Below are positions 4,188-63,043 of a DNA stretch of 64,000 nucleotides, one piece after another (the stretch's first letter is position 1; every line of letters begins with the position of its first letter). A program made the translations under genes and the position numbers. The stretch comes from an uncultured Acidimicrobiia bacterium (GTDB lineage Bacteria; Actinomycetota; Acidimicrobiia; Spongiisociales; ZC4RG35). The stretch lies in the NCBI GenBank assembly GCA_963790345.1, contig CAWBOD010000012.1:10118-74117 (forward strand), given 5' to 3'. Below the pieces are notes generated by a model. It had not been told where the DNA came from. It searched no databases and was given only the letters and a program-made list of their open reading frames with translations.

Positions 4188-4280
4188 CCTCTCGGTCGCC
4201 GATCTGGGCACTCTTGCACAATGTACCTGAGTCAGTTCACCTCGGCTCCAAAACGCAAGATTCGACGGGGTTAGCCTCAG

Positions 4281-5031: not shown

Positions 5032-5101
5032 ACGGCGAAGGGCAACCGTTTCTCGTGACGACCTTTCCGCAAAGCAATAGCCAGGTCCGGGTCGCCTCCA
5101 G

Positions 5102-8224: not shown

Positions 8225-8311
8225 ACGTGGCCGCGCCAAGGTCGCGGTCGCGGCGCTGACCCGTACTGCGGGGCCTCAAGGCCCACCTGACCTCGGCCGA
8301 TAAATGGGTAA

Positions 8312-9494: not shown

Positions 9495-9540
9495 ACCGGC
9501 TCGAATCGCGGGCTGGCGGCGCACCCTCCTCGCTAAGGGG

Positions 9541-9984
9541 CTAGGAACGTCCCAGCGCTGTCTCGTCGGACTCGGCGGCGCGCTTCATGTCCTGCGCCTC
9601 ACTGGTCAGGTACCGGGTGGTCATGCCCTTCGAAATTAGGCCGAAGACCGGGACAAGCCATCCCTGAATATCCACGGTTAGCGTCAGACGGGAACGGCCT
9701 TCTTCCAACGCGTCGACGCGATGGCCCGCCACGCTGGTGACGCCGCCGGACTTCTGGCGCATTTCGAAGTAAGACGGGGCGTCCCAGACGGTTATGTCCC
9801 ATGTGCCCTCTGGCAGCTTCGGCTGCTTGAGGCGAACACGGCTGCCTTTCGCCACAGGAGCGGGAGTGAGCAGCTCGGCGACATCGACCGTTTCGACACG
9901 GCGCGGCCACGCCTCGATGTCGGAGAGCACGTCCCAAACGCGCTGCGGCTCGGCGTCGATGTCGATGGATTCCTCAAACCGCAT
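9541..9984 (-). CDS. SRPBCC (START/polyketide cyclase-dehydrase-like) family protein
   Basis: Intact 147-aa ORF. MRFEESIDIDAEPQRVWDVLSDIEAWPRRVETV is a typical SRPBCC N-terminus. Confidence 0.75.
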   Translation of the reverse strand: MRFEESIDIDAEPQRVWDVLSDIEAWPRRVETVDVAELLTPAPVAKGSRVRLKQPKLPEGTWDITVWDAPSYFEMRQKSGGVTSVAGHRVDALEEGRSRLTLTVDIQGWLVPVFGLISKGMTTRYLTSEAQDMKRAAESDETALGRS

Positions 9985-10154
9985 CTCGAACCTTGACCCC
10001 CAAGGTTGCTCAGCCAGAGCAGTCGGGGCAGGGTAACTGGCCCGCCCCGGCGTCGACTCCGTTAGAAGTTCGTAAGTCCCAGGTGCGAGCCTTGGGTCAT
10101 GCTTCTGATGACCGCGTGTACCCCGACCTTTTGCCGGCAGGATCGGTAGTTTCC

Positions 10155-36510: not shown

Positions 36511-37891
36511 TCACCGTCCGGTCAGCAGCTTGAGCGCTGCGCCCAGCACCGGCGAGGGACGACCTGCCTTCGCCTCGCGGCGATCGATGGCGGGAACCAG
36601 CCGCCTGGCGGCGTTGACTCCTATCCACCGCAGAGGCTCCGGCTCCCACGGCTTGGATTGATGACCGACCCAGGGAAGCCGGGTGATTTCGGTGGGCTTC
36701 TCCAATACCAGATCAGCGAGGGTCCGGCCCCCCAGGTTGGCTGCCGCGACCCCGTCGCCCACGTATCCCCCGGTGTGGCCCAGGCCGGTCGTCCGGTCGA
36801 AGCTGACCGAAGGTTGCCAATCTCTAGGGACCGCCACGGCTCCGCCCCAGCGATGGGTGATGGCGGCGTCTCCGAGTTCGGGGAAGAGGTCCCAGAGGAT
36901 CCGGGCGATCCCTTCATGAATCGAGGCTTGCCGTTCGTAGGAGGGGTCGAGCCTCGAGCCGAAGTGATAGCGAGCGCCCCGGCCACCGAAGGCGAAACGC
37001 CCGTCGATCGTCCGCTGTCCGTAGATGATCAGCCGGCGGGCATCGTTGAATGTGGGCCGCTCCGCGAAGCCAACTTTGTCCCAGAACGAGGACGGAAGCG
37101 GCTCCGTGGCGACCATCAGCGAATAGACCGGGATATAGGTCCGGCTCTGACCGGGCAGCTGCACGGTGAACGCCTCCGTGCACCGCAGCACCGCTTCGGC
37201 CCTGACCGACCCGCGGCTGGTTTTGACCACACCCGGCTCGATCGCCTCCGCCCGGGTCTGTTCGAAGATCGAAACCCCCAGCCCCTCGACCACCCGCGCC
37301 AGGCCCCGGGCGAGGCGGGCGGGATGGATGGCGGCTCCGTGGGGCGTAAACAGAGCCCCTTGGGAACCGGCGACGCGAGCTTGCGCGCTGCAACTCGGTC
37401 GGCCCCAGCCAGCGGAAATCTTCGGCTCCGAATCCCCAGGATCGGTGGTGTTGGATCGCTTCGTGGATGGCCACGAACTGGGCGGTGTTGGTGGCGAAGG
37501 TGAGAATCCCGCCCTTCTGAAAGTGACAGTCGATCCCTTCGGCCGCTGCCACCCTCCCGACCTCATCCACGGTGGAGAACATCTCCCTCATGAGGGCCAT
37601 CACCGGTCCCCGACCGTGCCGCTTGGCCAACCGGTCCTTGTCGCCGGCCAATTCTCCGAGACACCAGCCGCCGTTGCGACCGGAGGCGCCGAACCCTGCG
37701 ATCTCCGATTCGATGACTACCACCCGCAGGTCCGGCTGTTGTCGCTTCAAGTAGTAGGCGGTCCAAAGTCCCGAGTAGCCGGCGCCGACGATGGCGACAT
37801 CGGCGACCACGTCACCGGGCAAACCGGGACGCGGCTCGAGAGTCTCCCCGACGGTGTCATGCCACAAAGAAAGCGAGGAGTACGTGTTCAA
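36511..37891 (-). pseudogene. FAD-dependent oxidoreductase (DAO family; gamma-glutamylputrescine oxidase PuuB-like), one apparent frameshift ~37390
   Basis: The N-terminus VAIVGAGYSGLWTAYYL...GFGASGRNGGW is in ORF 36914..37891. The C-terminal 280 aa are in ORF 36511..37566. Confidence 0.8.
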
Positions 37892-39244: not shown

Positions 39245-39571
39245 GAGATGGGTTCCTCCGAGATTTGGTGACCGAGCGCATCCCTTGTTTGCGGCCGGTC
39301 TGGTTCGTCAGTTGCTGGGGGTCCGGACGGTCGCGCGACCGTTGTGCCCATCCCGCTTCGTGACGCCGGACCGACTTTGTCGAACCGGGTAACTCAGTCC
39401 CACCGGAGAACGCCTGAGAGCAAATTCCGAATCAATTTCTGTTCATCGACGGCGGGTTGGGACGGAAGTTCCTTCCATCCATCACCCCTTCCAGGTCGTT
39501 GAACCCATCGCCGCAGAATAGCCAGGGATTGATGGCTGATACCGTCTGCGGGCCACTACAGGAGGACCCTT

Positions 39572-41009
39572 CTGACGACCGACCTCAAGCTATTCATCGC
39601 CGGGGACTGGACCGAAGGCAGCGGCAACGGGCATTACGAGCTGCGGTCCCCCGGAACCGGAGAGCATCTGGCCAACGTTCCGCTGGCATCGACCTACGAC
39701 ATCGACCGGGCGGTCGCCGGCGCTCGCGCCGCCACCGAGGAGATGAGGCATTGGTCGGCCTTCGAACGGGCCGAATTGTGTCTCCGCGCTTATGAGATCT
39801 GGCAAGGTCGGGTCGAGGACATCGCCCGTATCCTCACCAAGGAGCAGGGCAAGCCGTTCAAAGCGGAGGCGATCGAAGACATCGCCGAGTCGGGCGAGTA
39901 CCTACATATCGCCGCCGAAGACGCCAAGCGAATGAAGGGGGAACTGATCCCCACCACCGAGCGCAACCGCCGGATGTTCACGGTGAGGCGACCGGTCGGG
40001 ATTTGGGCTGCCATCACGCCCTGGAACTTCCCGGTCATGATCCCGATGGAAACGGTCGGCCCGGGTCTGGCTACGGGCAATGCGGTGATCGTGAAGCCCC
40101 CTCTCAACACTTGCTGGGCGATGCTCGAGGCCGCCCGGGCCATCGAGGAAGCCGGCTTCCCGAAAGGCGCGTTGTCGGTGATCCCGGGCGACCGCGAGGT
40201 TGGCGAGCACCTGGTGACCCATCCGGGGATCGATGGGATCAGCTTCACCGGATCATCAGAGACCGGCAAACGGATCGTCGCGGCGATGGGGCTCAAACGA
40301 ACGATCATGGAAATGTCGGGCAATGGTCCGCTGATCGTCGCCGGCGATGCCGACGTGGAGGCCGCGGCCACCGCCGCGGTCTATGGCGCGTACTACAACG
40401 CGGGCCAGGTCTGCACAGCCACCGAGCGTGTGATCGTTATCGACGAGCTCCACGACGCGTTTGTCGAGGCCACCCTAAAAGCGGCGCGGCTGGTGCGGCT
40501 TGGCGACCCGTTTGCCGACGACACCACCATGGGCCCGCTCAACAACGAGCCCACCGCCGCCAAGATGGATCGCCACATCGAGGATGCCGTCGAGCGCGGG
40601 GCCGAAGTCCTTCTGGGCGGAGGCCGGGCGAGTGGATACCCGACCGATCTGTACTACGAGCTGACCGTGATCGATCGGGTCTCCGAAGAGGCCGCGGTTT
40701 CACGGGAGGAGTCGTTCGGACCGGTGGTGCCGATTCTGACCGCGGCCGAACGACGAGGCCGCGGTGGGCATTGCCAATCGGACCCACCTGGGCCTGCAGG
40801 CGGCCGTCTTCACCAACGACCTGAGCAAGGCCTTCTGGTACGCAGACCGGATACGCAGTGGCACGGTCATCGTCAACGACTCGACCGATTTCTGGGAGAC
40901 CTTCCAACCGTTTGGAGGAGCGGCCGGGACCGAGACCGGTTGGGGACGCCAGCGCATCGAAGAGTTCACCGATCTGCAGACGGTGGTGTTCAATCTCCGC
41001 GAGGCCTAG
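39572..41009 (+). pseudogene. NAD(P)-dependent aldehyde dehydrogenase, one apparent frameshift ~40745; start codon uncertain (CTG 6 nt after GGAGGA)
   Basis: TTDLKLFIAGDWTEGSG..., PVGIWAAITPWNFPV, FTGSSETGKRI, EMSGNGP and YNAGQVCTATERV are present. The next frame (ORF 40764..41009) gives GIANRTHLGLQAAVFTNDL...IVNDSTDFWETFQPFGG. Confidence 0.85.
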
Positions 41010-41011
41010 TC

Positions 41012-41561
41012 GTGGAGATCATCGACCTGGCCGACCGCCGGGACCTGGTCGATCAGGTAGGCCTGATGTTGTGGGAGGGATTTCGAGTGCGTTGGCCGGG
41101 GGCATGGCCCGATCTCGCCTCCGCGGCCGCCGAGGTGGAGGAGTCGCTGGGCGAGGGTCGCATGAGCCTCGTGGCGGTCAGTGCTGAGGAACCGGTCGGC
41201 TGGGTTGGCGCCATCCCGACCTACGACCATGCCTGGGAGTTGCACCCGCTGGTGGTCGCCGTCGGCTCGGCAGGGAGAGGGCATCGGACCGGGCATTGGT
41301 CGAGGAGCTTCATGGCTCGAATTGCCAGCTCGGGTGGCGGGACGATCTATCTCGGGACCGACGATCAGGACGGGTCGACGTCAGTCTCAGGAATCGATCT
41401 CTACCCGGACCCGCTCCTGCATCTTGCGAAGCTCGAAGGTGATCATCCCTTCCAGTTCTATCGGAAACTGGGATACGTCCTGGTCGGGATCATCCCCGAT
41501 GCCAATGGCCCCGGGTCAGCCGGACATCCTCATGGCCAAGCGGATTGGCAAGGCTCCGTAG
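41012..41561 (+). pseudogene. GNAT family acetyltransferase (AAC(6')-like C-terminus), at least 3 frame changes (41260-41320, ~41515)
   Basis: VEIIDLADRRDLVDQVGLMLWEGF...VAVSAEEPVGWVGAIPTYDHAWELHPLVV. The fragments RQGEGIG, ALVEEL and ARIASSGGGTIYLGTDDQDG lie in different frames. The tail is [34 protein letters not shown]. Confidence 0.7.
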
Positions 41562-41593
41562 CCAGGGCAAGCGATCAGTTAGCGTCTACCGGG

Positions 41594-42612
41594 ATGGCGG
41601 AAGACCCCGTCCATGTCCCTTACGAGAAACGTGCTGCGGAGATCCCCTTCGCATCGTCCGAATACGTCTCGTTCGCATCGCGCCAATCGTTTCTGGGGGT
41701 GCCCGCCCGCCGCCTCGACGATCTCGGGGACGGCGAGGTGGTCATTCTCGGCGCTCCGTTTGATTGGGGCACCACTTTCCGACCGGGAGCCCGATTTGGA
41801 CCGGCGGCCATCCGGGAGGCCGATTACGGAGCGATGGACGGCTACCGCCCGCACCTGCCTACCGGCATCGACGCCGCTGGGCGCCCTCGGCGTGGTCGAC
41901 ATCGGAGATGTGTACGTGGTGCCGGGACAGGTTGAGTTGTCTCTCGATCGAATAACCGACACGGTCGAACGAGTCACCAGGGCCGGGAAGATCCCGATCG
42001 TCCTCGGTGGGGATCACACGATCACGTTCGCCAATGCCACCGGAGTAGCCCGGGTCCACGGGTTCGGCGAAGTGGCGCTGGTCCACTTCGATGCCCACGC
42101 CGACACCGGGGAGATGCAGAACGGTCAGTTATATGGACACGGCACCCCGATGCGCCGCCTGGTCGAGTCGGGGGCGGTCCCGGGCCACCGGTTCGTCCAG
42201 ATCGGCCTCCGTGGGTATTGGCCGGAGCCTCACGTGATGGCGTGGATGCGTGAGCAACGGATGCGGTCGTATCTGATGAACGAGATCGAGGATCGGGGCC
42301 TGAAGACGGTGGTCGACGAAGCCGTCACCTATTCCCTCGAGGGGGGCGCCAAAGGGTGTGTTCTTGTCGGTCGACATCGACGTCGTCGACCCCGGCTTTG
42401 CTCCTGGGACCGGGACTCCCGAGCCCGGCGGCTTGACCTCACGCCAGCTGCTCGACACCGTGCGGCGGTTGAGCAAGGAGCTCAACATCGTCGGTGCCGA
42501 CGTCGTCGAGGTGTCCCCGCCCTACGACTCGGCCGAGGTCACGTCTTATCTCGCCAACCGAGTGGTCCTCGAGATCCTCAACGGCCTGGCCGAACGCAAA
42601 GCCGGCGTCTAA
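41594..42612 (+). pseudogene. speB: Agmatinase/ureohydrolase family protein, 2 apparent frameshifts (~41875, ~42355)
   Basis: FLGVPARRLDDLGDGEVVILGAPFDWGTTFRPGARFGPAAIREA, then IVLGGDHTITF...LVHFDAHADTG...GHGTPMRR, then VFLSVDIDVVDPGFAPGTGTPEPGGLTSRQL...GADVVEVSPPYD. These include the Mn-binding DAHxD and DxDxxDP motifs. Confidence 0.85.
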
Positions 42613-42622
42613 ACCCCCGTCC

Positions 42623-42680
42623 CCCCGTTTTGGCGCGAAAAACCCGCACCCTGGTGCGGGTTTTTCGCGCCAGAACGGGG
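42623..42680. repeat. 58-nt near-perfect palindromic element, copy 1 (also a likely terminator of the agmatinase gene)
   Basis: CCCCGTTTTGGCGCGAAAAACCCGCAC-cctg-GTGCGGGTTTTTCGCGCCAGAACGGGG has 27-nt arms with one mismatch. It starts 11 nt after the TAA at 42610-42612. Confidence 0.8.
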
Positions 42681-42700
42681 ATCTTCCCTTCGGCCTGGAG

Positions 42701-43642
42701 GTGCGGCACCCTCGCAGAGTGGGCATCGACGAAGTCATCGACGAACTGGCTTCCCGGCAGCATGGAGTGGTCAACCGAAAGCAGCTGGCCGAGGTCGATC
42801 TGAGTGAGAGCGCCATACGGCACCGAGTGTCGGAAGGCACCCTCATCCCAATGTCTCCCGCCGTCCTCCGATTACGCGGCAGCACGAGAACCGAAATGCA
42901 GCGGGCCTCCGCCGGCATCTTGGATGCCCCCGGAACGGCCTATCTGTCCCATAGGTCGGCTTCGGCCTTCTGGCGGTTGCCCGGTTTCTCGATTTCTCCG
43001 CCGATTCAGGTCGTCATTCCATGGCATGGGACCAAGGAAAGGACTCGGCTCGCCACCGTCCACTACCACCGCGGCCTGCCTCCCGATCATCTCTTGGAAA
43101 CCGGTGGCATCAAGGTGGTCTCCCCCGCTTTGGCGATCTTCCTCCTGGCCGGCACCGAACATCCAGGGCGGACTGAACGGGCGCTCGACAACGGTCTGGC
43201 CATGAGGTTGTTCAGCAACAACAGCATGCACCTCCTGTTGGGTCAGCTGGCCGCTCGCGGAAGAAACGGCATTCGCCTGATGCGGGCCCTAATGGCCGAA
43301 CGACCTCCAGGCTACGTGCCACCACAGAGCGGACTCGAGGCGCGGGTTGAGCGGCTTGCCCGCGAGGTCGGAGTCGAACTCAGGCGACAGGTTGACGTTG
43401 GCGGACAGGAGTGGATTGGGCGCGTCGACTTCGAGGTAGTCGGGACGGCAGATGTCATCGAAGTCCTCTCCGAGCGCTTCCACTCGGCCTTCCTCGATCG
43501 CCAGGCAGACACCAAGAGATTCGAGCTCCTGGAGAGGTCCGGGCGAAGGGTCTTGACCCTGTGGGACGCTGACGTCTGGGGCAATGCCGAGGTCGTTCGT
43601 CAGCAGATCTCCTCGTTTTGGCGCGAAGAACCCGCGCCATAG
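42701..43642 (+). CDS. AbiEi-like N-terminal HTH + DUF559 (Vsr/PD-(D/E)xK-like endonuclease fold) protein
   Basis: The in-frame part of ORF 42494..43642 starts at GTG 42701 or 42719. It reads IDELASRQHGVVNRKQLAEVDLSESAIRHRVSEGTLIPMSPAVLRL...YLSHRSASAFW...PPQSGLEARVERLAREVGVELRRQVDVGG...GRVDFEV...EVLSERFHSAFLDRQADTKRFELLERSGRRVLTLWDADV. This is a typical multi-copy actinobacterial DUF559 family member. The last 11 codons are encoded by the left arm of palindrome copy 2. Confidence 0.65.
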   Translation: MRHPRRVGIDEVIDELASRQHGVVNRKQLAEVDLSESAIRHRVSEGTLIPMSPAVLRLRGSTRTEMQRASAGILDAPGTAYLSHRSASAFWRLPGFSISPPIQVVIPWHGTKERTRLATVHYHRGLPPDHLLETGGIKVVSPALAIFLLAGTEHPGRTERALDNGLAMRLFSNNSMHLLLGQLAARGRNGIRLMRALMAERPPGYVPPQSGLEARVERLAREVGVELRRQVDVGGQEWIGRVDFEVVGTADVIEVLSERFHSAFLDRQADTKRFELLERSGRRVLTLWDADVWGNAEVVRQQISSFWREEPAP

Positions 43643-49930: not shown

Positions 49931-51542
49931 TCAGTGGCCCTCGTAAACGACCTTGCCCCCGACGAGGGTCGCCACGACCTTGGCATCCCCTATGGGTCCA
50001 TCGAGGAACGGATCCCGGTCGAAGATCACCAGGTCGGCATCCTTTCCTTCCTCAATCGAGCCGACCCGATCGTCGACACGGTTGATGGTCGCCGAACCAA
50101 GCGTGAACGCGCCGAGAGCCTCGGCAAGGGTCAATGATTCAGCCGGCCAACAGCGGCTCCCCATGCGGTTCTCCGGGTACTCGTCTCGTCACGGCGACCT
50201 CGGCCTGCAGCATCGGATTCGGAGTAGACACGTACCAATCGGACCCCATAACCATTTGTGCGCCTGACCTCATGAGGCGGCCGAAGGGGTACAACCTCTG
50301 CGCCTGCCGTCGGTCGATGAATGGGAGAGTCAACTCGTCCATCTGGGGCTCATGGCATGCCCAATAGGCCTGGGCGTTGGCGGCCACGCGTAGGGAGCGA
50401 AAGCGATCGATGTCGTCTTCGTGGACAAATTGGATGTGGGCAATGTGGTGCATCAATCCGACGTCGCCATTGGTCCGTCTGGCCGTCTCCACGGCGTCAA
50501 GAGCATTTCGAACGGCCCGATCGCCGATCGCGTGGAAATGGCACTGGAAGCCGAGACGGTCGAGATCGGTGACGATCTCGCTCAGCCTGGCGGGTTCGAT
50601 GAAATCGATCCCGGAGTTCCCGGTTTGCTTGCCTTCCCCGTCCTGATAGGGCTCCAGCATCGCCGCGGTGAAGTTCTCGGCCACTCCGTCGAGCATCAAC
50701 TTGACGCTGGTGGGTCGATATCGGGGTCCGACGATGGTGCGACGACCGATCAACTCCTCGACTTGTTCGGACCCCCGGTAGCGATCCCACCAGAGGGCCC
50801 CCACCACGGACGCGATCAGCTCGCCCCGGCCGGCGATCGCAAGGTAAGCGGCCTCTTCGGGGGATTGAACGTCGGCGTCTTGCCAGCCGGTGATCCCCAG
50901 CGCCAGGAGATACTTCTGGCCCGCCAGCAGGGCTTGCTCGAGTTCGGTCGAACCCGGCTCGGGCAGGATCGCCTCGGCGATTGCCATCGCTCCTTCATGA
51001 AGGGTTCCTTGCGGGGAGCCGTCGGACAGTCGCTCGATCCGCCCATCAAATGGATCGGGCGTGCTCCTATCGATCCCGGCCATTTCGAGGGCTTTGGTGT
51101 TCAGCCAGGCCGAGTGGCCATCGCGGTTGTAGAGAAACGCCGGCCGATCCGGAACGATTCGATCGAGGGCGTCGGCGCTGGGCAAGCCGCGCTCGAACCA
51201 GGCCATCGCCCAGCCTCCGCCCCAGATCCACTCCCGCTCGCGGTGCCGGGCCGCATAGGCCGAGATCATGTCGGTGGCCTCGCTCAGGTTGACAGCGTCC
51301 TGAAGAGAGCAGTTCAAAATCTTGCGGCCACCGGAAATGGGATGGACATGAGCATCGATGAATCCGGGTGTCACCAGGCCGCCGCGGGCGTCGACGGACT
51401 CCGTGTCCTTGCCAGCCGTGCGGCGCACCTCGGACATTTCCCCGATCGACAGGATCCGTCCGGCTTCGACGGCAATGGCTCCGTCCACGGGATCGGCCCC
51501 GGTGAAAATCCGAGCGTTGTGGATGAGCAGGTCGGCGGGCAT
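49931..51542 (-). pseudogene. Amidohydrolase-3 (YtcJ-like) metal-dependent hydrolase, one apparent frameshift ~50150
   Basis: ORF 50139..51542 reads LLIHNARIFTG...GGLVTPGFIDAHVHPISGG...FQCHFHAIGDRA. ORF 49931..50164 reads SLTLAEALGAFTLGSATINRVDDRVGSIEEGKDADLVIFDRDPF. Confidence 0.82.
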
Positions 51543-51562: not shown

Positions 51563-52018
51563 ATGGTCTTGCCGGCTCCCATGATCTTTTCCACCGGGCC
51601 CTATGACGTGGACGACGATCCCGAACGAGTGGACGTTGACGCGGCCTGGGCGTTCCTGTCGACATCGGCCTACTGGGCCACATGGAGAAGACGGAGCGAC
51701 TTCGAAAGTCAGCTCACTTCTGCCTGGCGCGTCGTAGGCGTTTACGAAAGGTCGACCGGGGCGATGGTCGGATTCGCCCGGGCAGTTTCGGACGGTGTCG
51801 GGATGGCCTATCTGGCCGATGTCTTCGTGCTTCCCGAGGCTCGTGGAAGGGGACTGGGCAAGGAGCTGGTCGCAACGATGATCGATCGCGGACCCGGAGC
51901 TGGATTTCGCTGGATGCTCCACACCGCCGATGCCCACGGGCTTTACGATCGATTTGGCTTTCAGCCGGCCGATTCAACCTACCTCGAGCGCCCGCGACCG
52001 GGTAGCGGCCCGACCTGA
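51563..52018 (+). CDS. GNAT family N-acetyltransferase
   Basis: Intact 151-aa ORF. ADVFVLPEARGRGLGKELVATMI...LYDRFGF is the GNAT motif A. Confidence 0.8.
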   Translation: MVLPAPMIFSTGPYDVDDDPERVDVDAAWAFLSTSAYWATWRRRSDFESQLTSAWRVVGVYERSTGAMVGFARAVSDGVGMAYLADVFVLPEARGRGLGKELVATMIDRGPGAGFRWMLHTADAHGLYDRFGFQPADSTYLERPRPGSGPT

Positions 52019-52063
52019 ATCCGTGCGACGCCCAGAGTTCGGGTCACCATCGGGAAGGCCATG

Positions 52064-52139
52064 TGGTGGGCCCGGCAGGGCTCGAACCTGCAACCGACGC
52101 ATTATGAGTGCGCTGCTCTGACCCTTGAGCTACGGGCCC
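52064..52139 (-). tRNA. tRNA-Met (anticodon CAT; elongator-type acceptor stem, Ile2/lysidine identity not excluded)
   Basis: The reverse complement is GGGCCCGTAGCTCAAGGGTCAGAGCAGCGCACTCATAATGCGTCGGTTGCAGGTTCGAGCCCTGCCGGGCCCACCA. It forms a clean cloverleaf with a fully paired 1:72, so it is not an initiator. Confidence 0.9.
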
Positions 52140-52336
52140 GGGATGGGTTGGAAACACGGTGGAAACTCCAGAGTGTCGACGGCCGCTTCGGTGTCAGAGT
52201 AGAGGGAGGACACTGGGGGCGCACCGAGCAAGAAAGGGGCCTCCGGTGTCGTCTGACGTCAGGCGCGAAGGGTGGGACCGTCCGAAGGGAACCGGTCAGT
52301 GGCGGGCTTTGGAATGGGAGGCGGCGATAGCCGAGA

Positions 52337-53137
52337 TCAATGACCCAACCGCACGGGCATCGTAGCCCCGCCGTCGGCGCCGAGGCTGAGGGCAGCGTCC
52401 TCATCGGGAACGGCCGCCCCGCCCGCCATCACCGGAACCCCGCCGAACGATCGACGGACGGCCGTGATAAGGGAGGTAGCGGCCGCCAGGCGATCGGCAT
52501 TGACCACACCAATAGCAATGGCTGAGAGATCTTCGACCTGACGGAGGGCCGCGACCAGCGCTGAAGCCGGAGTGTCGGCGCCCAGATTGAGCACGCGGTA
52601 GCCGTCCGAACGAAGGATGTCAGCGAGCATCGCCAGTCCCAGATGATGACGTTCGCCCTCCGGCATGGCCAGAACCACCGTCCCTTTGGTCCGTCCTCGA
52701 CGGGCGAAGCGGGGTCCGAGGCGGCCGATAACTCCCGCTGCCACAACGCTAGCGAGGTGCTCGTCTTCCACCCCCAACTTGCCGTTCTGCCAGTGGTCCC
52801 CAATGGTGTGAAGAGCCGGGGTGAGAACCTCGCAATAGAAATCCGCCGGGGTCATTCCTGACGCGAACGCAGCCTCGACGACTCCCCAACTCCCCGCTTC
52901 GTCTCCGGCCAGCATCCTGGCCCGCAGTCGATCTCGCCAAGGTGCCGAACGCTTTCGAGAAGGTACGTCGGGGGAGGTATCCAACCGTTCGAGGTCGGTG
53001 AGATCGATTCTCCAATTGGTCCCCACTTTGCGTGCCGGCAGCATGCCGAGGCGGACGTACCTATAAACGGTCATGTAATGGACGCCAAGCTCGTTGGCAG
53101 CTTCCTGCATGCTCAAGTCGGGAGTTGGTGACGGCAC
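52337..53137 (-). CDS. HTH (excisionase/MerR-superfamily) DNA-binding protein fused to a cobalamin (B12)-binding domain, CarH/LitR-like architecture
   Basis: Intact 266-aa ORF. The HTH is MQEAANELGVHYMTVYRYVRLGMLPARKVGTNWRI. The helical B12-binding_2-like region is FYCEVLTPALHTIGDHWQNG. The Rossmann-like B12 domain VVLAMPEGERHHLGLAMLADILRSDGYRVLNLG carries the E-x-H-x-x-G lower-ligand motif. Confidence 0.8.
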   Translation of the reverse strand: MPSPTPDLSMQEAANELGVHYMTVYRYVRLGMLPARKVGTNWRIDLTDLERLDTSPDVPSRKRSAPWRDRLRARMLAGDEAGSWGVVEAAFASGMTPADFYCEVLTPALHTIGDHWQNGKLGVEDEHLASVVAAGVIGRLGPRFARRGRTKGTVVLAMPEGERHHLGLAMLADILRSDGYRVLNLGADTPASALVAALRQVEDLSAIAIGVVNADRLAAATSLITAVRRSFGGVPVMAGGAAVPDEDAALSLGADGGATMPVRLGH

Positions 53138-53190
53138 TCGTGGGATATTATCACTAAACCTGCCGACGCCAGGGATCGGACGATGCTCGT

Positions 53191-53631
53191 CTCAGCGGCC
53201 GACGACCGTTCCTCCCAGCGCCTGGGCCAGGCCGGCCAATGCCTTATCTGTAGTGGGCCGGATGAGCGCCGCCATGAGCGACGTCAGCACGCGAACTTCT
53301 TGAGCTTGCAATCCAGGGAGTAGACGGGGCGCGTCCTGTCACCCTGGTCACTGCGACGGTTTCGGTCCGGTGATGTTTCCCCCTTCGAAGCTCAGCACCA
53401 CCTCCCGGGGCGTTCGAAGTCCCGTGGTCTCGTAGTCGAGCGGCACTGAGCGTCCCACGAACCTAGTGAGAAGTCGATAGCGGGCACCAAGTCCGGCCCC
53501 ATCGCCGGCCGTCTTGTGAAATGCTGACCGTGGCCTGGATCCCACTCGGCGGCGTTGCGGAAATCGGCCATGCAATCGATGACGAATTCATTGGTTTTGG
53601 TGGTTTCAACAATTCCTCGATGGTTAGTCAT
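53191..53631 (-). pseudogene. SRPBCC family protein, at least 3 frame changes
   Basis: MTNHRGIVETTKTNEFVIDCMADFRNAAEWDPG, then AFHKTAGDGAGLGARYRLLTRFVGRSVPLDYETTGLRTPREVVLSFEGGN, then DRTRPVYSLDCKLKKFA, then VLTSLMAALIRPTTDKALAGLAQALGGTVVGR* from my own translation. Confidence 0.6.
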
Positions 53632-53686
53632 GACTACGCCGTCCCTTGTTCGGAGTGTTGAGTTAGTCGGTCCGGGTGGGGCGTCG

Positions 53687-54475
53687 TTAGATGGCCAGAG
53701 TGCCGCCGAAAACCTGCCAGGCAAGGGCCGACTTGGCCAACAGGCTCAAAAGCACGTATGCCCTCTCACCGTGCAAATAGCTGCGCCAGCGACCGATCTG
53801 GCGGTATTGAAGCCACATGTTCAGGGCGAAGACATTGAAGAACACGAACAGCGAGAAGAAGATGCCGTATACAAACCCAGGCGGTTGGGCAGCGCTACCC
53901 GGGGTGAACAGGTACAAGCCAATCGCGATCCAGGGGATGGCGCCTGCCACGGACCCCAGCCAGAACGGCAGCAAGGATCCACCGGGCCGTTCGTACTTCT
54001 CCTGCACCCCCCCGAAGAAGATCATCGAGGCGTTCACGCCGAACAGGGCAATGAGCGCCGAGATGTCGCTGATCCCGGTGAGCATTGCGATCAGGACGAT
54101 CATCACCGAGGAAGAGAGCGAATACTCCACCCACCGGAAGTAGTTGCGGGAGTGGGCAAGGCCGTTGCGGTAGCGCTCGAAGAAACCGCGCCAAGAAATC
54201 AGCATGTGAAAGCCGGCCGACAGGAACAGGAAGATCGCCACTCCCCAAGCGATCGACACATCGGCGAGCCGAATCGGGTCGGCGGAGAGAGAGCCGGGAG
54301 GACCCTCCAGAAAGGTGCCGGTCACCGGGAGTGTGAAGGAATTTCCGAGAACCAAGATCGCCACACCCTGCACAGCGTGGAAGACGCCCATGGCGACGTT
54401 GTACAGGCGCAGCCGGGCCATTATCCCGGGCCGGTCGGTCTCAGTGGTGGCCTTTGCAGTGATCATTGCGGTCAA
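53687..54475 (-). CDS. Heliorhodopsin (7-TM retinal protein, inverted topology family)
   Basis: Intact 262-aa ORF with strong similarity to my recollection of heliorhodopsin 48C12. The matching stretches are [126 protein letters not shown] and [30 protein letters not shown]. The candidate Schiff-base Lys codon is at 53734-53732. The counter-ion Glu is in RWVEYS. Confidence 0.9.
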
Positions 54476-54557
54476 CCGTATTTCGAGTTAGTCGGGAGGG
54501 TAGGACCCGGTCGAAACCGGGTTCTACCCTCAGCTTTGCGTCCGGGAGGCGAGGCGA

Positions 54558-55524
54558 TCAGGCAGGAAGGATCACCTGATCGATGACGTGGATTACCCCG
54601 TTGGACGTGAGGATGTCGGTGGTGACGACCTCGGCGTCGTTTATGAACACCTTGCCGTCCTCGACTCGGATCGTGATCGCAGAGCCTTCGACGGTTTGGG
54701 CTGACTCCAGTTCGATCACCTGGTCGGCAGTCACCTGCCCCGCTACCACGTGGTAGAGGAGGATCTGAGTCAGGGCGTCGGTGTCGGCCAACTAAGGCTT
54801 CGAGGGTGCCTGCAGGCAGGTCGGCGAAGGCCTCATCGGTGGGCGCAAAAACGGTGAAGGGACCGTCACCCTTAAGGGTTTCGACCAACCCGGCCGCCTC
54901 GACTGCTGCCAGGAGAGTTGTGAAACCACCAGCTGCCTGGGCTGTTTGGACGATGTCGCCCATTTCCGCCGCGGCACTCATCGAGGGCGGCAAGATCACT
55001 TGGTCGATGATATGGATAACTCCGTTGGAGGCGGCGATGTCCGTCGTGACCACATTGGCCTCGTTGACCTTGACCGATTCCCCCTCGACTGTGATGGCGA
55101 TGTCCTCGCCCTGAACAGTGGTGGCGCTGTCGAGACCGATCACATCGGAAGCCAGTACCTCACCCGAGACCACGTGGTATAGCAGCACGTCGCTCAGTGC
55201 CTCAGTGTCGGCCAATAGAGCTTCGAGAGTGCCCGCAGGAAGGGCGGCGAATGCCTCGTCCGTTGGCACGAAGACGGTGAACGGGCCATCACCCTGGAGG
55301 GTGTCGACCAGTCCCGCCGCCTCGACTGCCGTGAGGAGAGTCGAGAAATTCCCTGCTTCCGTGGCGACTCCAACAACGTCGGCCATCTCAGGCTTCATCG
55401 CGTCTGTCGTCGAGGTGGCCGGAGCCGCAGTGGTGGCGGTAGTCGAGGTCGTGGTGGCTGTGCTGCCACAGGCCGCTGCCACCAGGGCGAACACGGTCAA
55501 CAAGAGAATTGCGGTACGTTTCAT
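54558..55524 (-). pseudogene. Fasciclin (FAS1) domain lipoprotein, two FAS1 repeats, one apparent frameshift ~54790
   Basis: [21 protein letters not shown] is the lipobox. The pattern [39 protein letters not shown]...LLYHVV...[13 protein letters not shown] occurs twice. The end of the second repeat is in ORF 54558..54791. Confidence 0.85.
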
Positions 55525-55887
55525 GTGCTTTTCCTTTCGTTTTGAGAAGCAAGGACAGTTTTAGTACTAAATCGACCCTTATGTCAAGTCGAAGGATTGG
55601 GATTGGTGGGAGAAAGGCCGATCCGGGTACGCCGGCCCGGGAAAGCCCGACGCCATAAGTGACGATGCGGATGACTAGGTAGGGCGGGCGCCGCGGTACC
55701 TGTCGACAAGAGGTCGTGTCTCTGTCCGATTCGATCCGGCAAGACGACGGGTCGAATTCCTGGCGCAATCGGCAGAGGTCGGCATTTCGAGAACCTGCGC
55801 GACTACACCTACAAGCGACACCTGAGACTCGAGATCGAAGCGGTCCCGACGAGTCAGTCGCGAGTCTGGCCGACCCGGTCGGGCAGG

Positions 55888-55917
55888 AGGTCTGATGATT
55901 CGAGGTCTGATGATTCG
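55888..55917. repeat. Perfect tandem duplication of a 15-bp unit
   Basis: AGGTCTGATGATTCG occurs twice in tandem, inside an otherwise unassigned ~850-bp region. Confidence 0.9.
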
Positions 55918-56209
55918 AACTTCCGGGTGAAGTAGGCATCGATCGGACTGTTTCCCCACGCGGTGCTTTCGTGCAGGTCCCAATAGGGACGGCTCAGAAG
56001 CTGGCAACCAGGCGGTGGTTTAGTCGACGTCTGGTTGGCTTTCCCGAAGTTCCACCCGACGACATCTGTGCGGCATCCAACGGAACAGGTTCGGGCAGAG
56101 CCAAAGAGTCTGGGGGTGGGCATAGAACTGTATCGGCCCCGCCCGTCCCGTCCTCTAAGGACTGAAGGGTGGCTTCAGCTGGCGATCGGCTCTAAGTCTT
56201 AGCACGGCC

Positions 56210-56340
56210 CTGCGAGTGGGCAAGGAGAGCGAAGTGGCATTGCGTCCTGGTAGAGGTAACAGGTCGCCGCCCATGCGTTGGGCGAGTTTGCGTGAGATGG
56301 AAAGGCCGAGCTCGATCGTTTCCGTTCCCGCGCTTGCTTC
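56210..56340 (-). pseudogene. Possible orphan fragment of a histidine kinase HATPase_c C-terminus
   Basis: ORF 56155..56487 contains GTETIELGLSISRKLAQRMGGDLLPLPGRNATSLSLP. This resembles the G2-box/C-terminal strand of a sensor kinase, but no H-box or N-box lies upstream. Confidence 0.3.
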
Positions 56341-56374
56341 ATGCCACCTCGGATCGGGGCACCGCATCGGGTCC

Positions 56375-59300
56375 CTAGTTCGGGACGATTCCGTCCACTG
56401 CCAGAACACGGGTGAGGAACAGGGCCATCTGCCAACGAAGAACGCTGTTCTCCGGTCCGTAGGTTGTGGCGCTCGTTCCTTCAGCAATACCGAGCGTTAC
56501 CAATTGGTCGATAGCGTCCGTGGCTTCCGTGCTTTGGAGAGTCAAGTCGTTGAATCGCGTCGACCCGAATGGTGCCGGTAGGGGCGTTCCCACCACCGCC
56601 ACCGAACGGACCAGGAACAATGCCATCTCCCATCGGGAGACCGGTGTGTTCGGGGAGAACGAATCGACTCCGGTGCCCAGGGTGATCTTTAGTTGGGCCA
56701 AGCGGTTGATGGCGTCTCTGGTCTCCTGGTCGAAGCCGCCAATGTCGTTGAAACCCTGGTCGATCGAGGTTGGCGGCAACATCCCGCTTGTCCGCAGGTG
56801 ACGATTCAGGAAGAGTGCCATCTGCCATCGCGGGACCGTCCCGTTCGGGTTGAACGTCACTTCGGTCGTCCCGTTCGAGATTCCAAAGGCGAAGATGCAG
56901 TCGATGGCCCGGATGATCGTCTCGTCGAAGCCGGCGAGATCCTCAGAGCCGGAACTCGCGATCGAATCCGGACACACAGCCGAGGTGTCAACCAAACCCG
57001 TCCCTGCGGGTGCAACAACCACTCCTGCCACCTCCGCCTCCACCTCCGCCTCCGCCCACGACGGCGGTGTCGTTGTCGGTGTTGGACACTGAGACGTCGG
57101 CCGGGTCGATCCCGGTGTAGTCGCCACCGGCTGCGGTGGCCAGGACGATCGAGTAGACGACATCACCATCATCGACCAGGTCGTCGACGCCGGTCACGGT
57201 CACCGTCTGAACCGTCGCCCAGTTAGAAGTAGAGAAGGTCAGCAAGCCGGTAGAGACGGTTCCCTCAGAGGTATTCGAACTCGACACCCCCACCGTCACC
57301 GCCACCGACGGCTGCGTATTCAAGACCACAGTAAAAGTGGAAGCGGCTCCCGCCTCCGAAGTCGGCCCCGACAAAACGCCCACCGTTATCCCCACGGTGT
57401 CGTTGTCGGTGTTAGTCACCGACACGTCGGTCGGGTCGATCCCGGTGTAGCCGCCACCGGCCGCGGCGGCTAGAACGATCGAGTAGGCCACGTTGCCGTC
57501 GGTGGTCGCATCGTCGGCGCCGGTCACAGTCACCGTCTGGGCCGTGGCCCAGTTGACCGTACTGAAGGTCAGCTGACTGGTAGAGACGGTCCCCTCGGTC
57601 GTATCGCTACTCGACACCCCGACCGTCACGTCGTTGGTTGGTTGCGCTGTCAATAGAACTGTGAAGGTGGCCGACCCACCGGCTTCGGTCGTCGACCCCG
57701 AAATGGCCCCCACTGTCACCCCGGCGGTGTCGTCGTCGGTGTTGGACACTGAGACGTCGGCCGGGTCGATCCCGGTGTAGTCGCCACCGCCTGCGGTGGC
57801 TAGGACGATCGAGTAGACGACATCACCATCATCGAGGAAATCGTCGGCCCCGGTCACGGTCACCGTCTGGGCCGTGGCCCAGTTGGAGGTGCTGAAGGTC
57901 AGCAGACCGGTAGAGACGGTCCCCTCGGTCGTGTCGCTGCTCGAGACGCCAATCGTCACCGTGACAGTCGGCTGGGTGTTAAGCACGACGGTGAAGGTGG
58001 AGGTAGCTCCCGACTCGGCAGTGGGGCCCGATATGACACCCACAGTCACTCCCACCGTGTCGTTGTCGATGTTGGTCACTGACACGTCCGCCGGGTCGAT
58101 CCCGACGTAGTCGCCGCCAGCCGCGGTCGCCAAGGCGATCAGGTAGGTGATGTTGCCATCGGTGATCGCATCGTCAACGCCGGTTACTGTCACCGTCTGC
58201 GCCGTCGCCCAGTTGACGGTGGAAAAAGTCAGCAGACCGGTTGAGACGGTCCCCTCGGTGGCGTCGCTGCTCGATACGCCAATCGTCACCGGGGCCGACG
58301 GCTTCGAGTTCAGAACGACCGTGAAGGTGGAAGTGGACCCGGCCTCCGTGGTCGGCCCTGAGATGGCGCCCACCGTCACGCCTACCGTGTCGTTGTCGGT
58401 GTTGGACACGGACACGTCCGCCGGGTCGATCCCGACGTAGTCGCCACCAGCTGCGGTCGCCAGGACTATCGAGTACGTGATATCCCCGTCATCGAGGAAG
58501 TCGTCGACGCCGGTCACGGTCACCGTTTGGGGGGTGGCCCAGTTGACGGTACTGAAGGTCAGCAGACCGGTAGAGACGGTCCCCTCGGTCATGTCTGAGC
58601 TCGACAGGCCAATCGTCACCTCGCCCGTTGGCTGCGAAGCCAACACAACTGTGAAGTTAGAAGTACCGGCCGCTTCGGTGGTTGGCCCCGAGATGGCACC
58701 CACCGTCACCCCGACCGTGTCGTTGTCGATGTTGGTCACTGACACGTTCGCCGGGTCGATACCCGGTGTAATCACCACCGTCGGCCGGGGCGAGGGTCAC
58801 GGTGTAGGCGACGTCCCCGTCATCAAGGAAGTCGTTCACACCGGTCACGGTCACCGTTTGGGGAGTCGCCCAGTTGGAGCTGGTGAAAGTCAGCAGACTG
58901 GTAGAGATGGTTCCCTCGGTGGTGTCGCTGCTCGACACTCCGATCGTCACCGTGGCCGACGGCTCCGAGGTCAGAACGACCGTGAAGGTGGCAGTGGTCG
59001 CAGCCTCGGTGGTCGGCCCTGAGATGGAGCTCACCGTCACGCCAACCTCGCCTGCACAGGTGGGTTCGAGGAATTCGTTGCCGGAGAAGGTCATGTCACC
59101 CAGAGTGGACAGCGCACGACCGTAAACGTCTGCGCCGGCGCCCACCGTCACGGCGCCCTCGGCCAGGATGTTCCCCCGGAAGATTGCGTTGGCTCCCAAC
59201 GTCACGGCACCCTGAACCTGGAAGAAGACATTGCACTCTTGGGCACTGTCGGTCAACACAACCTGCGCGCCGGCTGCAGCTGTGAAGGCGCCCAAAGTCT

Positions 59301-59851
59301 TGATGATGAAGACAGAGTTCCTGTTGCCATCTCCGTCAAGAGTCAAGGTGCCGGTCAAACCGAGGGCAGTGGCCCCTGCCGAATGGACCCCGGCGTGCAG
59401 AGTTTGCGATCCGAGCTCCGCTGCAATGAGCCCGCCCATTTGAGCCTTGGCGTACTGATAGGCGGCTATCTAGTTCGGTTTGGGCCTGTTGGGCGACCGA
59501 ATCGTTGCGGTGGATTCCGCCAGAGTGCACTTGGCCATCGCCAATTGTGGTGATCGCGGAGCCCGGGGCCACACCGACGCCGTCTGCGAATGTGCTCGTG
59601 CTTCCCGTGTCAGTAATCGTCGTGTGGGCGAGAGCCGAGAAGTTGGTCAGAGTTCCCATTGGAACTGCCAGCGGAGCGCTAGCCGACGCCGGGGTTGCAA
59701 CGATGAGAAGCCCTGAAGTTGCCACGCTGAAGGCGACCAGAGCCGCTCCCGTGCGGCGGAACAATCCGTCTCTCGATCGTCGCAAATTCAGGTTCATTTC
59801 GGACACGTCGAAGTCATCGTCTGGCAAGCCTGGTGGTTCATTCGATTTCAT
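56375..59851 (-). pseudogene. Giant cell-surface protein: signal peptide, DUF3494 (ice-binding-like beta-helix), six ~110-aa tandem beta-sandwich-type repeats, poly-Gly linker, three SLH domains; 3 apparent frameshifts (~59465, ~58740, ~57060)
   Basis: - Signal peptide: MNLNLRRSRDGLFRRTGAALVAFSVATSGLLIVATPASASA (alternative start 59797).
- DUF3494: NFSALAHTTITDTGSTSTFADGVGVAPGSAIT...LTLDGDGNRNSVFIIKTLGAFTAAAGAQVVLTDSAQECNVFFQVQGAVTLGANAIFRGNILA.
- Repeats: GVTVGAISGPTTEAG.TSTFTVVL...VTIGVSSSD.TEGTVST.LLTFST.NWAT.QTVTVTG.DD...Y.IVLATAAGGDY.GIDPADVSV.N.DNDT, six copies.
- SLH: three copies of the F.D...A.DAI..L...GI..G...F.P...V.RWQMALFL pattern. Confidence 0.8.
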
Positions 59852-60019
59852 CGTCTTGCCGGGAGCGGGCACACATGTGGCCGAAAGTCCCTAGCAGTAG
59901 GGTCTTTAGGCCCTAATGAGTTCCAGCTACCAAAAGGTGATCAGCTACCGGACGAGCGACCATGAGGAGCGCCACCACGAAGCGTTGGAAGTACGACCGT
60001 TAGCCGTGCAACGAAGGAT

Positions 60020-61809: not shown

Positions 61810-61932
61810 GAATCGGGACGCTACCCCACAATGCATCGTCCGATGGCCGATAGCCTCCCTCACGACGAGGAGCCGGATCGCCATTGAGGAAGTCGTGAAT
61901 CAATTCTCAGGCTCGATAGGCATGAATTGCCG

Positions 61933-63043
61933 ATGAAGGTCGCCGTCATCGGCGGGGGTATCGCGGGCGTATCAGCGGCCTACCACCTCTCGCTGTCGGG
62001 TGCTGAGGTCATACTCCTGGAGCAAGAATCGACGCTCGCGTATCACTCGACCGGCAGATCAGCGGCCATCTATTTCGAGAACTACGGAGCGGACGCCAAC
62101 CGCCCATTGACCCGGGCCAGCCGCCCCTTCTTCGATGACCCACCGGCTGGCTTGGTCGATCATGGACTGCTGAAGGACCGAGGGGCCCTGTGGGTGGGGA
62201 GGCCCGACCAGATTGATTCGCTGAGCGAGTTGCTCGACGAAGGCTCGCCCCGATGGCTCGAACCAGAGGAAGCGGTGGCCGTCGTCCCGGTGTTGCGGCC
62301 GGAAATGATTGGTGGCGCGATTTGGGAGTCGGAGGCGCTCGACCTGGACGTGGCGGCGATCCATCAGGGGTTCGTTCGCGGTCTCCGGGCCGCCGGGGGG
62401 AGGATCCATCTCTCGTCCCGGGTCTCGGCCCTTGAGCACGCCGGAGATTCTTGGACGGTCGTGGCGGATGGCGGTCCGCTACACGGCGGACGTGCTGGTC
62501 AACGCTGCCGGTGCCTGGTGCGACCAGGTAGGAGCGATGGCCGGCGCAATGAAGATCGGACTACAGCCGATGCGGCGTACCGCCTTCACAGTGCCGGGCG
62601 ACCAGGCGTGGGCTGGATGGCCGCTCGTCAGCAACGCCAACAATGAATTCTATTTTCGCCCCGATGGAAGCCAGCTTCTCTGTTCTCTGGGTGAAGAGAA
62701 TCCCTCCGACCCCGGCGACGTCCGGCCCGAGCCGCTCGACATAGCCCTTGCCATCGACCGCATCAACGCCCACACGACAATCGATATCCGGGTTGTGCGC
62801 TCGTCGTGGACCGGTTTGCGATCCTTCGTCGCGGATCGCGCCATGGTCATTGGCTTCGACCCTCTGGTCCCTCATTTTTTCTGGCTGGCGGGCCAGGGCG
62901 GCACCGGGATCCAGACCGCACCGGCTGCCGGAGAATTGGCCGCAGCCATCATCACCAATGGCGATGCTCCGCGCCGGCTTCTCGAACTCGGGGTGGACTT
63001 GAGTGCCCTGTCTCCTGCGAGGCTCCAGTCTCAACCGCGGTGA
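61933..63043 (+). pseudogene. FAD-dependent oxidoreductase (DAO / glycine-D-amino-acid oxidase-like), one apparent frameshift ~62470
   Basis: MKVAVIGGGIAGVSAAYHL...LLEQES is the dinucleotide-binding motif in ORF 61927... The C-half is in ORF 62309..63043 (YTADVLVNAAGAWCDQVG...GQGGTGIQTAPAAGEL). Confidence 0.8.

Follow-up and report, generated by a model that had tools for sequence, protein, structure and literature searches.

CarH of Thermus thermophilus, Myxococcus xanthus and Bacillus megaterium is an adenosylcobalamin (AdoCbl)-dependent, light-released repressor, and the T. thermophilus protein (TtCarH) binds 11-bp direct repeats. The function of heliorhodopsins (HeRs) is still largely open, and the few partners shown for them have all been found via conserved operon neighbours. 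The locus described here lies in a 64,000-nucleotide stretch of DNA from an uncultured Acidimicrobiia bacterium (the window, meaning the whole 64 kb analysed) and combines a HeR gene with genes for a two-domain fasciclin (FAS1) lipoprotein, an SRPBCC protein and a helix-turn-helix (HTH) regulator with a vitamin B12-binding domain (REG). Two further B12-dependent systems are close to it. In the LitR/LitS system of Streptomyces, a B12-dependent MerR-type regulator controls an adjacent extracytoplasmic function (ECF) sigma factor (PMC11519972). In Chloracidobacterium thermophilum, CtMerR (8JBS/8JBT) binds AdoCbl and passes from tetramer to monomer in green light (PMC11796333). It is fairly probable that a B12-dependent, light-released repressor, REG, controls the FAS1-HeR operon of the window.

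The order FAS1 lipoprotein, HeR, SRPBCC and REG forms one run with all four genes on the minus strand, as a sequence-only reading of this DNA had proposed. The coordinates given there hold, and its intergenic distances (82 nt, 55 nt and roughly 54 nt) are arithmetically correct. The elements of the locus are as follows.

55582-55587, minus strand: -35 hexamer TTGACA of the operon promoter P1, read from the sequence and conserved among aligned loci
55560-55571, minus strand: 12-bp palindrome TTTAGTACTAAA, candidate REG operator, conserved and overlapping the P1 spacer and -10
55558-55563, minus strand: -10 candidate TAAAAC of P1, overlapped by the palindrome
55525-55559, minus strand: conserved 5' leader with Shine-Dalgarno (SD) sequence (cttgcttc..aaacgAAAGGAa..agcacATG), from the anchored alignment of FAS1-bearing loci
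54558-55524, minus strand: two-FAS1-domain lipoprotein gene with a +1 frameshift at about 54793 (Pfam Fasciclin)
54496-54557, minus strand: two intercistronic stem-loops in the FAS1-HeR spacer (RNAalifold, 7 loci)
53687-54466, minus strand: intact heliorhodopsin gene from ATG, alternative TTG at 54475 (PF18761, NF038020)
53192-53631, minus strand: decayed SRPBCC (Polyketide_cyc2) remnant, the corrected translation of which matches PF10604
53145-53158, minus strand: TTTAGTGATAATAT, candidate internal promoter P2 for REG, the same 14-mer being found at related loci
52337-53137, minus strand: REG, GTG start, with HTH_17, B12-binding_2 and B12-binding domains (Pfam)
52064-52139: tRNA-Met, downstream of REG

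The Pfam domains of REG, HTH_17 (38.8 bits, cut-off 27), B12-binding_2 (PF02607, 49.7 bits) and B12-binding (PF02310, 43.8 bits), all score above cut-off. Its cobalamin-binding region carries the signatures GDHW, DEH (in W-x9-EH), GERH and GADTP, and the signature residues W109, E119, H120, H157 and P183 are invariant in 42 REG homologues. The combination of GxxW, EH, GxxH and GxxxP is the validated signature of light-responsive cobalamin domains (PMC11796333). The best sequence match in the PDB is CtMerR (8JBS, E=6e-21; CarH, E=4e-12), which shares this signature and is the closest solved relative of the REG cobalamin-binding domain; the DNA-binding domain of CtMerR, like that of REG, diverges from that of CarH. 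Only the cobalamin-binding domains of CtMerR and REG align, the DNA-binding domains having no detectable sequence similarity. An AlphaFold2 model of an intact REG homologue of 94% identity (pLDDT 88.9) was matched by Foldseek to photocobilins, CtMerR and full-length TtCarH, the last of these (5C8D/E/F) over about 283 of 288 columns with the DNA-binding domain included, at a TM of about 0.6. CarH and REG are alike in the succession of winged-helix DNA-binding domain (predicted for REG), four-helix bundle and Rossmann B12 domain, and in the Wx9EH and ExHxxG motifs. Some IMG records name members of the REG family 'light-induced transcriptional regulator'. Motif, predicted fold and gene context therefore agree with the sequence-only reading of a CarH/LitR-like regulator with a cobalamin-binding ExHxxG domain, and support the view that REG is a B12 photoreceptor of this kind.

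As in CarH systems, light-related genes lie next to the regulator and the candidate operator extends over their promoter. However, the DNA-binding domain of REG is of the HTH_17 type and falls under the Pfam MerR cut-off (17.3 bits against 28.2), the candidate operator is a 12-bp palindrome, and the cargo is a HeR with a fasciclin lipoprotein, compared with the carotenoid genes under CarH. The 10-bp palindrome TTAGTACTAA noticed earlier (55561-55570) lies 37 nt before the ATG of FAS1 at 55524. It is part of the 12-bp TTTAGTACTAAA and represents a conserved cis element rather than a coincidental match; the leader 3' of it holds AAAGGAA. The window contains a single match to the pattern TTAGNNCTAA, where 0.06 would be expected, and 978 kb of 82 HeR loci (designated below by L numbers, as are other related loci) contain eight, seven of which are at the promoter of the first operon gene. 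The palindrome was also found in L083, L085 and L086. An anchored alignment of 11 loci retains only two conserved blocks, TTGAC(A/T/G) and ATTTAGT(A/G)CTAAA, between diverging flanks. The distance from the TTGAC block to the palindrome is 9-10 nt in most loci and 7 nt in the Chloroflexota-type L015 and L086, and L002 has TTAGAG in place of the TTGAC block. The P1 spacer measures 17-18 bp to a -10-like TAAAAC, TAAACT or TAATCT overlapping the right half-site.

These cis elements travel exclusively with REG. A scan of a metagenome collection for TTGAC-N10-11-TTTAGTACTAAAAC, made on DNA only, returned 25 loci, of which five are AT-rich chance matches. Among the other 20, which are high in GC, module genes occur at 16, with FAS1 as the immediate downstream neighbour at 11 of the 16. 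As in LitR/LitS, the same operator stands before an ECF sigma gene next to REG in L093, L103/L108 and L101/L112, where a second palindrome follows 31-33 bp after the first. The sigma gene of L103 is followed by genes for an anti-sigma factor, an acyltransferase and a DNA photolyase (Pfam), and an anti-sigma gene was identified by sequence in L112. In L087, which has a REG of 56% identity, no HeR and a photolyase context, related motifs occur in the intergenic region between REG and a short-chain dehydrogenase/reductase (SDR) gene. The occurrence of the palindrome at ECF sigma promoters beside REG, together with the related motifs of the HeR-less L087, indicates that the motif follows REG independently of HeR. 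Accordingly, TTTAGTACTAAA is likely, as judged from its distribution, to be the REG operator overlapping the operon promoter. Unlike LitR/LitS, the window cluster has no ECF sigma gene, although one is present in the related L093, L103 and L087, and the regulon differs. With no sigma gene and with the operator directly on the FAS1-HeR promoter, regulation would be direct rather than through a sigma cascade.

A second conserved element precedes REG itself. TTTAGTGATAATAT ends 7 nt before the REG GTG in the window, and an identical 14-mer is found 6-7 nt before REG in L003, L004, L083/L084 and L085. L087 has a variant of it, TTTACTGATAATAT, 9 nt ahead of REG, and in L001 a deletion has removed the element. 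TTTAGTGATAATAT reads as an extended -10 (TGaTAATAT) and begins with one operator half-site, TTTAGT. The short distance from the -10 of this putative promoter P2 to the start codon makes it likely that the REG mRNA is leaderless.

The 82 HeR loci were obtained by look-ups and a scan of GTDB representative genomes, and their neighbours were surveyed by phmmer. In seven of these loci (L001, L003, L002, L004, L006, L015 and L020), REG directly follows HeR on the same strand, with HeR identities to the window of 92% (L001), 81% (L003), 72-73% (L002, L004 and L006) and 65% (the Chloroflexota metagenome-assembled genomes L015 and L020), whereas roughly 65 more distant HeR loci, mostly from Nanopelagicales and similar groups, are without REG. 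REG homologues of 91%, 75% and 59% identity all lie within FAS1-HeR-(SRPBCC)-REG, and the 56% homologue of L087 has genes for a DNA photolyase, an SDR and an ECF sigma/anti-sigma pair as its neighbours. The conserved core is therefore FAS1-HeR-REG, in Acidimicrobiia and Chloroflexota, the linkage being seen independently from HeR, from REG and from the DNA pattern. A survey of the whole HeR-fasciclin-SRPBCC-B12 regulator neighbourhood had been suggested earlier, and it bears out the gene run in related genomes but shows SRPBCC to be optional: it is confined to a sub-lineage and, like an NmrA/DUF2867 gene inserted in L002 and L003, is an optional insert. Flanking genes differ between loci and the DNA alignment stops just upstream of the promoter, the module moving as a cassette. 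The gene order is REG-ECF sigma-HeR in L093 and REG-ECF sigma-anti-sigma-acyltransferase-photolyase in L103 (5758-9609) and L087, and a BLUF histidine kinase is encoded near the module in L002 (1-563).

By all sequence comparisons made, the gene at 53687-54466 encodes a genuine heliorhodopsin, as had been proposed. The open reading frame (ORF) 53687-54475 gives 262 aa from TTG, or 259 aa from the ATG at 54466 at which database homologues start. It matches Pfam PF18761 over profile positions 1-242 of 242 (E=1e-98, 330 bits, cut-off 26.7), NCBIfam HeR NF038020 with 322 bits (cut-off 100) and the founding heliorhodopsin 48C12 (6SU3) with E=3e-86. The blocks with the retinal lysine quoted in the sequence-only reading are present, and the Schiff-base lysine of transmembrane helix 7, the counterion glutamate (RWVEY) and both 48C12 histidines are aligned. 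RWVEYSLSS is identical in the two proteins, and GVFHavQ and FHmliS pair with GVFHllQ and FHfivS of 48C12, marking the protein as a close 48C12-type HeR. It is the only intact gene of the four, has no indels relative to L001, L083 and L003, and is under purifying selection, with a ratio of non-synonymous to synonymous change (dN/dS) of 0.10-0.17.

The FAS1 gene encodes a signal peptide and the lipobox LVAAAC at its N-terminus, and PF02469 (Fasciclin) matches it in two stretches (193 bits). The two domains, the lipoprotein nature and the position upstream of HeR described in the sequence-only reading therefore stand, but the gene is not an intact ORF. The mechanical ORF 54472-55524 (350 aa) is out of frame after about residue 244, in the first half of the second domain, which is split over two ORFs; the true C-terminus lies in ORF 54558-54791. 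Alignment with L001 places one extra base at about 54793, removal of which yields a protein of 321 aa. The FAS1 dN/dS of 0.13-0.17 indicates purifying selection. The FAS1-HeR spacer of 91 nt contains hairpin A (54538-54557), with an anti-SD-like CCUCC loop, and hairpin B (54496-54531). RNAalifold on seven loci supports 21 pairs, eight of them with compensatory double changes. No Rfam family matches these hairpins and no U-tract follows them; they probably set the ratio of FAS1 to HeR transcript, via partial termination or transcript stabilisation. As in the pairs AbHeR/glutamine synthetase, TfHeR/photolyase and OcHeR/OmrDE ABC transporter, HeR is co-transcribed with a conserved neighbour; unlike in those systems, the neighbour is an extracytoplasmic lipoprotein. 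The fasciclin had been named as a candidate HeR partner, and it is a fair one because it is the most constant co-transcribed neighbour.

In the proposed mechanism, REG would combine a winged-helix HTH_17 domain with a cobalamin-binding domain bearing the light-sensing signature. In the dark, AdoCbl-loaded REG would oligomerise and occupy TTTAGTACTAAA, and because the palindrome lies over the P1 spacer and -10 (TTGACA-N10-palindrome), RNA polymerase would be blocked. Green, blue or UV light would break the Co-C bond and dissociate the oligomer, allowing transcription of FAS1-HeR-(SRPBCC)-REG. The short and probably leaderless transcript from P2 (TTTAGTGATAATAT) would maintain a basal level of repressor, read-through from P1 into REG would provide negative feedback, and the two FAS1-HeR hairpins would adjust the FAS1:HeR transcript ratio. 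The sequence-only reading had placed two unrelated photoreceptor types side by side in a light-responsive locus. Both genes are present, but REG is better read as a light-dependent controller of the operon than as a parallel second sensor, because the candidate operator overlaps the operon promoter and also precedes the ECF sigma/photolyase genes beside REG homologues.

Several points weigh against control by a light-released repressor. REG reaches only 63.2 bits against the NCBIfam CarH equivalog NF052513 (cut-off 400), with just the B12 domain aligning, and being so far under this cut-off it is not classed as a true CarH; nor does its HTH belong to Pfam MerR, being of the HTH_17 type. A strict sigma-70 consensus scan of 52000-55800 gave no promoter, TAAAAC lacking the final T. 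The palindrome of L007 (TTAGTGCTAA, 181-190) lies 40 nt before the HeR start, of which the mRNA is possibly leaderless; no REG is found within 8 kb downstream of that HeR, and the upstream side is cut by the contig end. L005, L008 and L009 have close HeRs with neither REG nor motif. For a tetramer of the CarH type, a 12-bp palindrome is a small target, and FAS1-type promoters have one copy only. The orthologous loci are not phylogenetically independent, and the association of motif and REG partly reflects shared ancestry. AdoCbl binding by REG, its release by light, its role as the palindrome binder and the working of FAS1 with HeR are suppositions of this model. If the lesions in FAS1 and REG were real, the system would be broken in this organism.

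These lesions are the basis of the first alternative, in which the locus is decaying here, the FAS1, SRPBCC and REG frameshifts are real and only HeR remains intact in a relic. Three of the four genes do have frame-breaking indels relative to intact orthologues, which the sequence-only reading had overlooked. Because of a -1 indel near 52362, REG has MPVRLGH in place of its conserved C-terminal helix (DAR.VG.LI) and is 266 aa long, compared with 278-295 aa in homologues; with the frame restored, REG ends at 52296 and has about 281 aa. Of the regulator gene described earlier, the domains and the position hold, but it is truncated by this frameshift and its DNA-binding domain is of the HTH_17 (excisionase) type rather than canonical Pfam MerR. 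However, such lesions are common across the 64 kb, where Pfam profiles continue from one ORF into the next. As codon log-odds with a fixed threshold were too insensitive for gene mapping, Viterbi frame segmentation served as a guide and splits were confirmed by Pfam profile coordinates. The split-gene regions of the window are 49931-51542, 36511-37891, 61927-63043, 16714-19040, 39533-42803, 4275-5102 and 9870-16002, and the affected genes are as follows.

49931-51542: Amidohydro_3, split, with profile positions 3-396 in one ORF and 400-472 in the next
36511-37891: DAO gene, split, profile positions 1-144 and 132-353
61927-63043: DAO gene, split, profile positions 1-186 and 192-352
Molybdopterin oxidoreductase: split, profile positions 1-116 and 151-352
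Aldehyde dehydrogenase: truncated and fused to an arginase N-terminus
DUF2071: profile positions 2-139 of 212
56375-59872, minus strand: repeat surface protein, spread over at least three reading frames, e.g. with a junction near 58770
BTAD-cNMP-WD40 giant gene: split by frameshifts

The distribution of these indels suggests an indel-prone (long-read?) assembly or widespread pseudogenes. Values of dN/dS were calculated on frame-corrected codons for the window against L001 and L083, with the intact pair L001-L083 for comparison. FAS1, HeR and REG (0.11 for REG, purifying selection) fall at 0.10-0.17, the same as intact pairs. Because the whole window is rich in indels, the lone frameshifts of FAS1 and REG are, to judge from the sequence context, probably errors of assembly. 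SRPBCC differs. No ORF spans it (53631-53192) and its fragments give no Pfam match; relative to the intact orthologues of L001, L003 and L002 it has five window-specific indels (+1, +1, -1, -4 and -1), and only the translation with these repaired matches PF10604 (42.8 bits, cut-off 27.4), which the orthologues of L001, L002 and L083 match as intact genes. The indel density is five in 444 nt, compared with about two in 2.6 kb for FAS1, HeR and REG together. Its dN/dS is 0.64 against L001 and 0.39 against L083, compared with 0.21 for the intact pair, as dN is 0.15-0.175 rather than 0.066 with similar dS; estimated from these pairwise values, dN/dS on the window branch is about 0.8, close to neutrality. 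Conserved residues are altered, e.g. VFDYIADF to VIDCMADF. A Tajima relative-rate test gave a weak signal against L001 (38 vs 18 unique changes, p=0.01) and was not significant against L083; the corresponding result for REG is contaminated by its frameshifted 3' end, making dN/dS on frame-corrected codons more informative. SRPBCC thus reads as a truly decayed copy or a very badly assembled patch. The SRPBCC gene of the sequence-only reading is thus not intact, and since SRPBCC is optional, absent from many orthologous loci and decayed in the window, it has little claim to be an obligatory partner of HeR and is best dropped from the presumed partners. The excess of non-synonymous change in SRPBCC favours decay of the locus as a whole, whereas the FAS1 and REG dN/dS of 0.11-0.17, the indels throughout the window pointing to an error-prone assembly and the perfect conservation of promoter, operator and P2 argue against it, and such decay is considered unlikely.

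It is less probable still that HeR and REG communicate at the protein level, with HeR as the primary membrane sensor modulating REG, or with two light colours being integrated. The tight adjacency of HeR and REG in two phyla would fit such an arrangement, and rhodopsins that bind soluble partners and regulate them are known for glutamine synthetase (PMC9529153) and photolyase (PMC9769723), with an ABC transporter (PMC11109279) and an HTH regulator acting with Gloeobacter rhodopsin (PMC11217422) as additional precedents. However, REG homologues with the same cis motifs occur without a nearby HeR (L087, and the ECF sigma/photolyase promoters of L103), and the sequences indicate no interaction surface. 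Communication of this kind would be compatible with control by a light-released repressor.

Equally improbable is the proposal that REG senses cobalamin supply or redox and not light, or that some other factor binds the palindrome or the palindrome is a mere promoter part, in which case the proximity of HeR would say nothing about regulation by light. In its favour, B12-binding domains are also found in non-light proteins, corrinoid proteins and MetH score in a similar range (NCBIfam, PDB), and the right half-palindrome doubles as the -10 candidate, so that part of its conservation could be due to promoter function. Against it, REG has the complete set of four light-specific signature elements, all of them invariant, REG-family neighbours are consistently light-related (HeR, DNA photolyase, litS-like ECF sigma and the BLUF kinase of L002), the palindrome sequence is fixed while its distance to the -35 varies (7, 9 or 10 nt), and tandem palindromes 31-33 bp apart stand at other REG-linked promoters. 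MerR-type activation by DNA distortion was rejected since the -35 and -10 elements are 17-18 bp apart rather than 19-20 bp; this spacer, with the palindrome over the -10 region, fits steric repression.

A bolder proposal, put forward only tentatively, is that this HeR clade acts on the outer side of the membrane with a dedicated fasciclin lipoprotein, the pair being made only in light under a B12 photoreceptor of a distinct HTH_17 subclass. One photoreceptor would then be the transcriptional gate for another, and HeR would have an extracytoplasmic partner or output, in contrast to the cytoplasmic or membrane partners known so far. No paper linking heliorhodopsin with CarH, B12-binding or cobalamin-binding was found in the searchable literature, apart from one single co-mention with 'LitR' of which the passage was not checked, and none was found there on a heliorhodopsin-fasciclin pairing. 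In the accessible portion of PMC11109279, the ten frequent HeR neighbours include 'MerR family transcriptional regulator', SDR and alpha/beta hydrolase, with no link to B12 or CarH; these neighbours are not mentioned in PMC8612252. The novelty is moderate and consists of CarH/LitR-type control with an HTH_17 domain, a new operator, a new cargo and a new candidate HeR partner. CarH/LitR-type B12 photoregulation would thereby extend to an HTH_17 subclass with a new palindromic operator, and this subclass could serve as a green-light switch. The locus does not reveal the biochemical output of HeR. It offers a conserved extracytoplasmic candidate partner for one HeR clade, and a defined promoter/operator with a candidate light-dependent repressor in uncultured Acidimicrobiia and Chloroflexota, and is a worthwhile and well-defined experimental target, although the present sequence copy is flawed by indels.

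The surroundings of the locus add some minor observations. As had been stated, no retinal or carotenoid biosynthesis genes turned up among the major ORFs scanned in the 64-kb window. A scan of 52000-55800 found no convincing terminator. An Rfam search gave no match except tRNA; a sub-threshold match to 'Plastid-ycf2 5UTR' at 52066-52139 on the plus strand (39 bits vs 65.7) is exactly antisense to tRNA-Met and was rejected as a tRNA artefact. The 850 nt upstream of the operon promoter (55525-56375) have no coding signal and the lowest GC of the window (0.57), with no homology to neighbours of related loci by tblastn and no Rfam match. ARAGORN calls a tRNA-Val(GAC) at 4120-4214 on the minus strand that has its anticodon at position 40 and, at 95 nt, is longer than bacterial tRNAs usually are; it may contain an insertion, an intron-like element or an assembly indel. 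The giant surface protein at 56375-59872 on the minus strand has an Ice_binding-like N-terminus, then repeats of about 100 aa (GGDYxGIDPADVSVSNTDNDTVGVTVGAISGPTTEAG...) and a C-terminal SLH domain. Three genes in the region 7454-16002 encode a histidine kinase, an adenylate/guanylate cyclase and a STAND-like regulator of the BTAD-cNMP-binding-WD40 type. By tblastn, their homologues in L001 and L002 directly flank the HeR module, whereas in the window these genes lie 40 kb away from it.

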